A DNA stretch of 64,000 bases from Lama guanicoe (Eukaryota). Location of the stretch: positions 1,918,018-1,982,017 of the forward strand of contig MU057069.1 of assembly GCA_013239625.1 (NCBI GenBank). The letters are read 5' to 3'. Positions 41,531-60,364 of the stretch are shown in pieces. The translations under genes and the position numbers were made by a program. Under the pieces are notes generated by a model. It searched no databases, was not told the origin of the DNA, and was given only the letters and a program-made list of their open reading frames with translations. Position 1 is the stretch's first letter, and the number at the start of each line of letters is the position of its first letter.

Positions 41531-41682
41531 CCGCTGATGATCTCCTTGGTTTCCGCTCGGATGAAGTGCTCCTTCTCGGGGGTCAGAATGCACAGGGAGA
41601 ACTTCTGGCCTGTTCGGCCCTCCCCGTCCACCACGTCCGTGCACTGGTTCATGTTGATGGTGCCCTGAGGGAGGGTCGTGGG
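41531..41682 (-). CDS. MPRIP: MPRIP exon 4 (PTTLPQGTINMNQCTDVVDGEGRTGQKFSLCILTPEKEHFIRAETKEIISG), PH1
   Basis: Acceptor CTGCAG|CCC, donor GG|GTGAGT; 152 nt, phase 0 to 2. Confidence 0.97.
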
Positions 41683-44990: not shown

Positions 44991-47324
44991 GGTACCTGAG
45001 AGGAATACAAGGAAAGTGGGTATGGGGCTGGGAGGGCCGGGGCAGGTGAGCACGCACCGCGGCCCAGCAGAGGCCAAGAGGAAGAGGAAGTGAGCGCTGA
45101 GGCCACTGGACAGAGAAGGGCAGGGCCTGGCCTGGGACAGGCCTGCTGTTAGAACTGGAAGGAAGGGGCCCGAGGTGGCCTGGAGGACAGGAAGGCCGAG
45201 GTGCACCCATGGAAGGAGCAGCCTGACCCCAGCCCACAGGAACACTCTGACCCCGACAAGGCACCAACTAAAGAACTAGATTTTTTTTCCCTGTGCTTGG
45301 CGCATATGCTAGCTTTCTCTGGCATTTCTATCCCTGCCTTCACAGAAAACAGACCCTTTTAGGCTAATGGCATATGTGATGCGACTCAGACGGGCAGGAG
45401 CAGTAGAGGCAGAGGCAGAGACAGGACGGAGGCCAGCAGCCATATGGAAGACAAGACCACTGGCTGCTTCAGGAGGAAAGCAAGCTGCCACCCTAAGCCT
45501 TTGCCACAGCCACCTCTGGGGCACAATTTCGTTGATACCCAAAGATCATGGCAGCTGGAGAGACACAACCCGAGGGCCATCCAAGTGTGAGAGCTGGAAA
45601 GGCGTTGGAGACAGCGCTGCCTCTCTGGGGCAGGGGTGCAGCAGGAAAGGGGTGCAGGAGGACGGACATCCAGAAGGGATGTGAACTCAGCTCTTTCTCA
45701 GACGCAAAGGAGACGGAGCCAGTGTCTGTGTCCATAGCCTTCACCTCTCAACAGAAAGTTTCCTTCTGGCAAAGACTTACGTCCACCAGAGTGGGAGGGC
45801 CCGAGACAGCAGGTCTGCAGTGGGCAAGGAGGCAGAGCCCGAGGGCACACAGCAGCTGGGCGGCACCCAAGGTGCTCCGGGGGGCTTCCCGGAGCCAAGG
45901 GAGGAAGGGCCCGGCAAGGTGGGGGCAGGAAGGCTGGTGCTGGCACCACCACCAGGAGTGCCCTGGTCCCCCTGGGTGGGGAGGGCAGGACGCCGCAGCT
46001 GGCACACGCCAGCAGGCTCTGTCCTTCCCTCCCCCTCAGCTGCTCAGAAACGCTGCACCGAGCAGCCTGGCCACAGCCCGAGGCGGCCATCTTCCTCCAG
46101 GAAAGGGTGTTCTGGGACTGGGGCTCATCCAGATCAGGTCTCGGTTCACAGGAGCGACAAGCAGTGGGGACAAGGGTCCCAGGTGAGTCCCATGGGCACC
46201 CACTGAAGGAACCTGGGCTGCTAATCACAGGCTCAGAGGATGAGAGCTGACTGAGGAGGGGCTGGAGTCAGCACACACACCCTGGACGCCAGGCCCTGGG
46301 GACACAGCACCCACCACGGTGAGATCAGTGCTGAAATAAATGTGTGGATGCAGCCTGTGGAGAGCCTGGAGCAAGGCGGCAGGAACGGAGAAGTCAAGTC
46401 TTAAAGGCTTCTCGTGGCACTGGGGGTCAGGCTTGTCTGGCGAGGTCCTCATGGGAGGAGCCAGGCTCAGAGGGCAGAGCTGCAGAGACAGAGTACAGCT
46501 GGCGATGAAGAAGCACAGGTACTGAGAGTCTTTCGATAAATGAACATTTTGTCCCCATAAATCTGAGGCGTGCAGCACCATCTCCACCGTAGATACAAGA
46601 AAATCACTCACAAAAGCAAAGCACTGCTCCCGACAGCAGCCACCTGGCTAGCAGACACCCAAGCACGGAATAAAGCTGACAAACACTTCCGACCTCACAA
46701 CGCTGACTGTGCAGCCTAGAGCTGGACCAGAACAGCACACGAGGTCTGCAACATGGGTGGGAGGACCCTGGTGATGCGCACAGCAGGGAGGTCAGAGGAC
46801 AGCAGGTGGCGGGAAGGTGCCAGTCCTCCAACCGCCGATGGACGAGTGACCGTCAATCCTGTTTTGGTCCTGCTGCCTTGGTTTAATCAAAGAGTCTAAA
46901 GAGAATCTTGTAGGTAAAGGTCGACTGGTCCCGAGAAGGATGCTTGTTTAAGCCTCAGCAGTCACTTGCCAGCACAACCTCTGACCTGCAGCCACCACCA
47001 GACCTCCCACCTCCCCCCAACAGAGGCAGAAAATAAGGCCCCCGGACACCAGGTCACAGTGGGGGTCTCCCCAGGGCTGCAGGGAGGGGAGCAAAGCCCC
47101 TGGTGAGGTTCCGACTGTGACCTGAACCCACTCGCCTTCTGGCTTCGCTCCCGGGATCCCAGCCCCCCGTCCATGCTGGAAGCCAACCCGGGCTTCCTGG
47201 TCCAAAGTCAGGTCCTCCCTTACTGCAAGGACAATTCCAGCAGCACCTCATCTCCCAGCCCTTCCCGGCTGCCTGGCCTGGAGAACTTCCACTTTCTCCT
47301 ACTTTCTTTGGTGCAACTTCTTCC

Positions 47325-58207: not shown

Positions 58208-58581
58208 GCCTCCAAGAGTCGGTCCGGCCCAGCACCCCAAGAGGGATGCCCAGAAGGGGACACGTTCACTCCACCTTCTGCCACTGCACACGCGGCAGGC
58301 AGGCAGCAGAGACGTGATGCCTGGAAGGACTTCTCCTGTGGGAACAGCTCTGAGCAAGTAACCCAAAAAGGGCCTCTCATCATTTAAACCCCAAAAAGTT
58401 CACATCAGAAAATTTTTCTGAATAGTCAGTTTATCTTTTCATCTTTGTGCTTTCCTGTTTTTACAAAATGTGTGCAACGAGTAGGCTACTTTTTATACTT
58501 GTAGTAGCGAACAGTTTCGGAGCATTTGCTCTCTTGTATGTGGCCACTCCCCTTGGTTTCAAGATCCAATCCAGTCCTTAC

Positions 58582-58602
58582 ATCTACATTTTTAGTACAC
58601 AT
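58582..58602 (-). CDS. MPRIP: Candidate alternative first coding segment MCTKNVD, in frame with exon 4
   Basis: ATG TGT ACT AAA AAT GTA GAT|GTAAGG is a phase 0 donor downstream of a candidate promoter. No transcript evidence is available. Confidence 0.4.
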
Positions 58603-58789
58603 TTGCTTCACTTTAAGAAATCAGAATAGGAAAATTCAAAGTTACAAGAAAAGGAAATGCAGGGAGAACTTTGGATGCTTAGACAGGACTCGCTGCTCTC
58701 AGGACTCCCCTGCAGCAACCAGTGAAGGCGCCATAAGGGGCAGGGGCTGGGAAAGAGGGGACACAGAGGAAGAGGGGGAAAGGGGGGGG

Positions 58790-58817
58790 NNNNNNNNNNN
58801 NNNNNNNNNNNNNNNNN
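58790..58817. other. Assembly gap (28 N) within a G/purine-rich tract
   Basis: Run of n flanked by G homopolymers. Confidence 0.99.
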
Positions 58818-58926
58818 GGGGGGCGTGGGGGAAGAGGAGGGAAGTGGGGGAAGAGGGCAGGGGCTGAGAAGCAAATGGCTTTCAGCTGGCTCCAAGTTTG
58901 CAAGGCTTGTGCCTTTGACACGGCGG

Positions 58927-59368
58927 CTATTTTTGGGTTTCCGAGTAGGGGGAAGGAATTCTTCTCACCGCCTCCTTGCCTGGCAGCCCCTTTGCCCTAG
59001 CTCCCCCCTCCCCTCCTGGCTCCACAGCCCCTAGGATGAAGGAAGCCCACCCTTGAGTCTTTCCTCCCCCTGCCCCCACTTACCACCCCCATGCTCTTAA
59101 GCCCATTGGGAGGCCTCACCCATTTGCTTGTCTTTTTATACGGAGCTGGGAAAATGTGGAAATAAATGAAGTCTCAATTAGGCCAGCATCCAAGGTTTGG
59201 GGGTGGGGCGGGGGAGGGGTCTGAGGCTTCATCCCAGTCCAGGAATGCCTGAGAAAGCTCCAGGAGCCTCAGGCAGCCTCCAAGGGTGGAGGCTTCCCAC
59301 AGACTCCTTTCTGGTCTGCACTGAGCAGGCAGCCAGGGGCTTAGGGGCCTGGGAGCCCAGTTCATTCC
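58927..59368 (-). promoter_or_regulatory. Candidate internal MPRIP promoter
   Basis: Minus-strand TATAAAAAG at 59132-59140, GC box GGGGCGGGG at 59205-59213, TEAD/MCAT GGAATG at 59242-59247 and CATTCC at 59363-59368, MEF2-like CTATTTTTGG at 58927-58936. Confidence 0.45.
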
Positions 59369-60364
59369 CACACCAAGACTCACTGCAGGCAGCCCACTGC
59401 AGGAGGGCTGCCTCCCTTCCACCCCACGCACAGGAGAGGGGGGCTCTTCGCCCTGGTCCCCCTCTCTCCTCCTCCCTGGTGCCCTTCCCAGAGCAGGGGC
59501 AGGACCCTCGGACCCAGGCGCAGTGGCAGCCCTCCAGACCCAACAAAGGCAGTGTTCCCTCTAACTGTGGAAACTCAGCACTTCTTATTTATTCCGTTCT
59601 GAGTCCGGAAAGAGTGTCGAGAGGCAGGTTTTATTTCTTCCCCGAGTGGAGGGTGAGGGAGAGGCATACTCTGTCGGGAGGAGGCTGGGCGGGAAGAAGC
59701 TCACAGATATTTTTAGAGACATGGGAATTTGACAAGCAGGGACCTTCTGGGGCCAGAAACATGTTCTGTTTCAATCCCAATTCTGAAAGGCCGGTGGGTG
59801 GCAGAGAGTCAGGGGCTGGAGCAGAGCGTGGCGGGAGCAGCATGAGACTCCAGGGAAAAGAAGAAACTGAGCTGAGAGCTGGGACCTCTGAGGCCACTTC
59901 TCACTGCTGCCGTCTCGGCCATCTCTGCGTTCATGGAAGCTGGCAAATGTCACGACTGCACAGCAGCTCCCAGGGGCCCAGAGTGATGGCGCCGACCCCC
60001 AGCAGGGCCACCTCAGCTCTCAGCAGTGTGGGAGGTGGTGAGGGCACAGAGGTGAGACGCCAGTTGCCCCTCCCTCTGCCGCTGGTTCTGGCTTGACTGG
60101 GGAAGAATGAGGTGGGCTCTTCAGTTCTCTCTGGGCTTCCAATGACTCAGGCCATCTCAGTTCTCTGAGACCACAAGTACGACCCTGAAAATCACTCCTT
60201 TAGCCCCATCTCCCACCACCGTCTCTGGGCTTTGACCAGTCCCATCCCTCCACCTTGGATTACTCCTAATTTGCTCTCTCCCCGGGAGTCCCAGGGTTGC
60301 CAGGCTGGCCCCTGCGGCAAGCAGGGTGTGTGCAGCTCTCTGCACTGCACCCCGGCCGGCTGAC

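Follow-up and report, generated by a model that had tools for sequence, protein, structure and literature searches.

The window, that is, the whole 64,000-nucleotide stretch of Lama guanicoe DNA analyzed here, contains most of the MPRIP gene on the minus strand. The product of this gene couples RhoA and myosin phosphatase to actin. Among known proteins, Vicugna pacos isoforms come closest (99% identity), followed by those of Camelus (96–97%), in line with a South American camelid host. Exons 1, 2, and 3 fall outside the window; in window-extended coordinates they map to 101287, 72674, and 70710, respectively, with exon 1 lying within a CpG island. Exon 4 is located inside the window:

41531–41682, minus strand: MPRIP exon 4 (residues 90–140), which encodes the C-terminal portion of PH1; an ATG further downstream is in frame and has a good context

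With exon 3 at 70710 and the start of exon 4 (residue 90) at 41682, the candidate element studied here (58380–59370) falls within intron 3 (28,962 nt). A later intron contains a long open frame (10619–9663, minus strand) that shows a weak, coiled-coil type of similarity to MPRIP itself; as we infer, it is probably part of the giant exon of MPRIP isoforms of >2000 amino acids.

A first-pass annotation had placed an internal promoter and a first exon in this element, naming TEAD motifs, a GC box, TATAAAAAG, a short uORF, and an ATG followed by a donor. All of these are present on the minus strand at the positions named. The promoter-type motifs are as follows:

59363–59368, minus strand: TEAD-type hexamer, core only (GGAATG/CATTCC)
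59241–59248, minus strand: TEAD/MCAT-type site, fuller match (hexamer 59247–59242)
59201–59211, minus strand: GC box (59211–59206) overlapping a CACCC box
59132–59140, minus strand: TATA box TATAAAAAG in a GC-rich, CpG-poor setting
58927–58936, minus strand: MEF2-like site CCAAAAATAG, one mismatch to the consensus

Only the hexamer at 59247–59242 matches the fuller MCAT pattern. From the usual TATA spacing, a transcription start would be expected near 59107–59110. The CpG observed/expected ratio was 0.22 at 58900–59237 versus 0.92 at exon 1. The MEF2-like site does occur where it had been annotated, but it falls one base short of YTA(W)4TAR and sits downstream of the predicted start; a sequence scan of 58380–59370 found no consensus MEF2 site and no CArG box. 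Other, consensus MEF2 sites in intron 3 (57189–57180 and 42131–42122, minus strand) are nearer to the consensus than that at 58936–58927.

We then asked how often such a layout occurs. TATA and GC boxes came together in 4 of 300 and 1 of 300 block shuffles. Among the 113 TATA boxes found on both strands of the 544 kb of genuine DNA around the site, with the features and thresholds chosen after the candidate site had been viewed, two were accompanied by a GC box, and the candidate site alone combined TATA box, GC box, and a near donor (1/113) or had two TEAD hexamers beside the TATA and GC boxes (1/113). The other TATA-plus-GC site in this control resembles an old LINE fragment. A donor followed 9 of the 113 TATA boxes, and a donor and then an exon-like pair followed one; 23 of 1612 donors had an exon-like pair behind them. 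In a neutral panel of 14 motifs the site had four matches, which was equaled by 11 of the 113 TATA boxes and by 748 of 5000 random GC-rich windows, placing it in the top 10 to 15%. From these counts, the core-promoter and splice layout is unusual, whereas the muscle/TEAD signature is ordinary. The muscle or YAP/TEAD control proposed earlier relies on motifs for which the neutral panel shows no enrichment.

The ordinary standing in the motif panel favors a possible but doubtful explanation, namely, that the element is no productive transcription unit. Its common motifs would then have come together by chance in this GC-rich intron with its low-complexity pyrimidine tract, or they would form an intronic enhancer there. 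Intron 3 as a whole offers four exon-like pairs, six ATG-plus-donor candidates, and five AT islands, which also suits chance. The ordered, in-phase chain of TATA box, GC box, donor, acceptor, and donor, found at 1 of the 113 TATA boxes, speaks against it. The three further exon-like acceptor–donor pairs lie at 66450–66178 (273 nt) and 68468–68318 (151 nt) in extended coordinates and at 45105–44816 (290 nt) in the window, all on the minus strand. The top-scoring donor of intron 3 (60419) closes an open phase-0 frame of 37 codons (60530–60420, minus strand) whose ATG has A at −3; this frame, 1.3 kb upstream of the TATA box, is another first-exon candidate.

Downstream of the predicted start, the element can be divided as follows (a slash marks an exon–intron boundary):

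59084–59108, minus strand: predicted 25-nt first exon, whose ATG 59092 (A at −3 and G at +4) starts the peptide MGV and which ends at the donor GTG/GTAAGT
58747–59083, minus strand: predicted 337-nt GT–AG mini-intron, containing the MEF2-like site and an assembly gap
58790–58817, no strand: assembly gap of 28 N in the leader, of nominal length, which may hide an AG or an ATG
58582–58746, minus strand: predicted exon of 165 nt, in phase 0 on either side, with a TGA in frame at 58701–58699 (codon 16)
58699–58734, minus strand: uORF MAPSLVAAGES followed by a stop
58582–58602, minus strand: start MCTKNVD of the first-pass annotation, whose context is weak, with C at −3 and T at +4

The earlier proposal was a single 527-nt first exon ending at 58582, with MCTKNVD (about 944 amino acids) as the main product under muscle or YAP/TEAD control. 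Its sequence ATG...GAT/GTAAGG (58602–58576) is in phase 0 with exon 4 (41682), as had been claimed. However, the pyrimidine-rich leader actually ends in the top-ranked acceptor 58746 and has the assembly gap inside it. The proposed exon also contains the ATGs 59106 and 59092 and the donors 59119 and 59083; the combination of ATG 59092 with donor 59083, the acceptor, and the 28-base gap had been overlooked. ATG 59106 is probably too near the cap for use. Donor 59083 follows ATG 59092 after three codons and joins exon 4 in phase 0. Chance readily places an open ATG ahead of a phase-0 donor: of the 19 top-scoring donors of intron 3, 6 have one.

Splice sites were scored with matrices trained on this gene only (21 donors and 20 acceptors). 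Acceptor 58746 ranked 2nd of 2156 in intron 3 and, with leave-one-out scoring, beat 17 of the 20 real MPRIP acceptors, and donor 58581 ranked 19th of 1913. The mini-intron ends in a 115-nt AG-free pyrimidine tract, the longest AG-free zone among the 2160 AGs of intron 3. Donor 59083 had a lower matrix score than donor 58581 (7.0 versus 7.9), and the two match the U1 consensus at seven and six of nine positions, respectively. The 25-nt exon, a retained mini-intron, and the 165-nt exon together are thus identical to the 527-nt exon. The MCTKNVD ATG is the fourth in that exon and stands behind a 31-codon uORF with a strong context.

The 527-nt exon with MCTKNVD as its main product seems improbable to us. 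It agrees with the motifs, which are all present and in frame, and with the donor rank (19/1913). By contrast, three ATGs precede 58602, one of them in a strong context and opening the 31-codon uORF; the internal donor and acceptor would have to be ignored; and the MEF2-like site departs from the consensus.

The strong acceptor also opens a different reading, in which the main transcript includes the 165-nt segment as an internal exon, either a poison cassette or a terminal exon whose 3′ UTR lies in the adjoining AT island:

58295–58694, no strand: AT-rich island, single-copy, in which GC falls to 0.37 over the lowest 300 nt; it contains another TATAAAAAG (58497) and variants of the polyA signal

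As a poison cassette, the segment would bring a stop 15 codons after exon 3 and lead to message decay. The rank of its acceptor among the real MPRIP acceptors (better than 17 of 20), the 115-nt AG-free tract, and the in-frame TGA agree with this reading, as do TATAAA 58497 and GATAAA 58435, which precede T/GT-rich sequence, for the terminal form. On the other hand, the signal scan found neither AATAAA nor ATTAAA, and both forms leave the TATA box and donor 59083 unexplained. We regard this reading as unlikely. The island had been described as an AT-rich non-repeat region surrounding the promoter; it is indeed single-copy, but it spans 58295–58694 only, with the promoter outside it, and it is one of five AT-rich islands in intron 3, two of the others being repeats. 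Each of two parts of the element had one genome match and none in the 544 kb nearby, within a copy search that very old repeats may escape; this differs from the multiple copies expected of a transposon-derived promoter or exon. A search of the element against Rfam gave three matches (E 0.19–2.4), all far under the gathering score, and no snoRNA or miRNA family.

We next considered RNA evidence. Eight runs recorded as RNA, from two studies, possibly one campaign, each contained 0.53 of the 36 words sampled from 58380–58780. This count leaves out the small runs X13 and X14 (shares 0.25 and 0.22); runs X1 and X10–X12 are only presumed to be RNA. The runs richest in these words reached 0.89–0.92. 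The constant half share could reflect a fixed exon boundary. It was compared with a long or retained exon (P 0.05–0.09; 15–16 of 36 words expected, 19 seen), a terminal exon (P 0.04–0.10), full cover in an animal diverged by 1–3% (P 0.03–0.07), and the 165-nt exon alone, which fits poorly (P 0.005–0.015); the 25-nt exon alone accounts for none of it. The word share is therefore compatible with the 527-nt exon and with the terminal form of the 165-nt segment, fits the cassette alone poorly, and, under the chance or enhancer reading, could come from unspliced RNA or from DNA of a diverged relative. As it is compatible with several readings, we take it as an ambiguous hint of transcription. None of the 13 rat Mprip splice events in supplement 3 of PMC6613909 had flanks of exon-3 and exon-4 size or lay in intron 3, which argues against the poison cassette. 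Two other data sets contain two Mprip splice rows, concerning the first exon (PMC9343278), and at least four (PMC8260223, file 4).

To look for the predicted N-termini in known proteins, we fetched 385 proteins from searches covering proteins of ≤2000 amino acids (the best 120 of 969 and the best 120 of 1734 matches). The exon 4 start was contained in 279 of them, including 14 camelid isoforms, and 240 of these had the canonical exon 3 before exon 4. Among the matches listed (≤2000 amino acids), neither MCTKNVD nor MGV was the N-terminus of any of the 279 exon-4-containing proteins. The lack of MCTKNVD among these matches weighs against the 527-nt exon, and the lack of both N-termini also favors the chance or enhancer reading. 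A query with exons 5–6 among proteins of 110–352 amino acids gave 37 matches, none with the MCTKNVD peptide. A metagenome motif scan gave two chance-type matches, neither with flanking similarity, and a profile-free HMMER search of 1.84 billion representatives with the 44-amino-acid frame through the donor gave one match (E 9e-4), an unrelated repeat protein; both results likewise count against the 527-nt exon. Neither search brought up DNA orthologous to the element, so the leading explanation given below gains no support from conservation.

Two apparent supports were rejected. Eight proteins start with M-PTTL; the simplest source of their Met is the final codon of exon 3, and the element has no ATG/GT donor. 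A 22-amino-acid cassette of Pteropus shares three residues with the peptide and scored 18 bits versus 34–36 for positive controls. This cassette is an insert between exons 3 and 4, inside PH1, in RefSeq models of two Pteropus species (P0348–P0364), and it found a background-level match only anywhere in the camelid intron. None of the extra exons of Pteropus, Cavia, and dog mapped to the candidate element.

Some models do enter exon 4 from exons elsewhere in intron 3, namely, V. pacos XP_031532118.1, C. dromedarius XP_031323280.1, and R. sinicus XP_019571520.1. Three RefSeq models have the exon-4 Met as their start: XP_023377876.1 and XP_024900159.1 from two Pteropus species and XP_021550331.1 from a seal, Neomonachus. 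Truncated forms have therefore at least been modeled in V. pacos, C. dromedarius, Rhinolophus, Pteropus, and seal. None of the first exons of the known exon-4-entering models maps to 58380–59370. The 13-codon first exon of an older V. pacos RefSeq model (P0264, P0266, and P0269) lies at 47174–47136 (minus strand) and is joined to exon 4 through a GC donor; a consensus MEF2 site (47333–47324) precedes its ATG by 160 nt, and 47076 is a strong acceptor. The region 46452–46315 (minus strand) has 85% identity to the 46-amino-acid N-terminus of C. dromedarius P0273/P0274, with a weak donor and an open frame. Just upstream of exon 4, 41952–41911 (minus strand) matches 12 of the 14 residues of the alternative N-terminus of R. 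sinicus P0094/P0110.

Our leading, still tentative, explanation is that MPRIP intron 3 contains an internal promoter of the CpG-poor TATA type, whose transcripts would have a short first exon or a two-exon leader. The internal promoter of the first-pass annotation thus holds up in part: with the TATA box, GC box, and splice layout present, an internal TATA promoter is plausible, but the exact MCTKNVD isoform is weak because its ATG is the fourth in the exon, has a poor context, stands behind the strong-context uORF, and is found in 0 of 279 proteins. The protein would likely start with MGV or at the exon-4 Met instead of MCTKNVD. Transcription would begin at about 59108, and the chain from the TATA box through the 25-nt exon, the 337-nt mini-intron, and the 165-nt exon to exon 4 would be in phase 0 throughout. 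Splicing from 59084 to exon 4 would yield an MGV-MPRIP of about 940 amino acids. If the 165-nt exon were included or the mini-intron kept, ATG 59092 would become the start of a uORF, so that protein would arise only via re-initiation or leaky scanning, with starts at 58602 (about 944 amino acids) or at the exon-4 Met (about 927 amino acids).

Every predicted form would lack residues 1–89, which are the front part of PH1. As had been stated before, entry at exon 4 would remove the beginning of PH1; this is confirmed here, as exon 4 aligns to PH positions 43–91 of 105. In the AlphaFold model, residues 1–201 have a mean pLDDT of 47.9 (low confidence), with three strands before the exon-4 boundary. 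The alignment, together with the three strands upstream in this low-confidence model, indicates that PH1 would be incomplete. A preprint assigns actin binding to residues 1–213, LRRC8A binding to PH2, RhoA binding to 545–823, and MYPT1 binding to 824–879 (bioRxiv 10.1101/2023.03.08.531807), and an NLS is predicted at 155–164 (PMC8068864). By these published limits, the product would keep PH2, the RhoA and MYPT1 sites, the LRRC8A site, and the predicted NLS; the 213-residue actin-binding region would be shortened by 89 residues. The first-pass annotation had suggested that such a form could act as a decoy or be relocalized. A C-terminal MPRIP fragment localizes to stress fibers, according to the title of a supplementary figure in PMC8068864, which counts against simple relocalization.

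A more far-reaching version, which we consider quite improbable, is that the hidden TATA promoter and the 165-nt exon act as a switch between an anchored and an unanchored adaptor in contractile tissue. With the 165-nt exon skipped, translation would be strong and give a half-PH1 MPRIP with the RhoA and MYPT1 sites; with it included, ATG 59092 would open a uORF. As part of the main transcript, the same exon would serve as a poison exon. One element would then set the balance of actin-anchored and unanchored myosin phosphatase adaptor. If the internal promoter is real, the form without residues 1–89 could loosen the actin tether and alter contractile tone, and it would escape N-terminal antibodies and knockouts of exons 1–3. 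A literature search, with subscription journals mostly outside its coverage, found no MPRIP intron-3 promoter or isoform of this kind.

TRIOBP is paralogous to MPRIP. TRIOBP-1 (Tara) is made from a second, internal promoter and lacks the N-terminal actin-binding repeats with the C-terminal domains kept (PMC5996455). Like the MPRIP candidate, it combines an internal promoter with loss of an N-terminal actin-binding part; however, TRIOBP-1 is an established, ubiquitous form from which entire modules are missing, whereas the MPRIP candidate is predicted and would cut through a PH domain. Nesprin-1-alpha2 is a short isoform arising by internal promotion with a unique short N-terminal peptide (PMC4924313 and PMC3981789). 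It resembles the candidate in losing the actin-binding N-terminus and having a short N-terminus of its own, but it is muscle-specific and shown at the RNA and protein levels, whereas the candidate is a prediction from sequence. RBM20 has an alternative start between exons 1 and 2 (PMC13198548). As in the exon-4-Met option, the start is intronic and translation sets in at an ATG within the following exon; the RBM20 start, however, is shared by human, mouse, and rat and backed by ribosome profiling, whereas the MPRIP start is a prediction from sequence. The nearest parallels within MPRIP, the exon-4-entering models of V. pacos, C. dromedarius, R. sinicus, Pteropus, and Neomonachus, have the same PH1 truncation point, but, unlike in the candidate, their first exons lie elsewhere in intron 3 (47174, 46452, and 41952) or are unplaced. 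Internal promoters that yield shortened cytoskeletal adaptors are common, so the element would be a useful gene-level addition and not a new kind of system.
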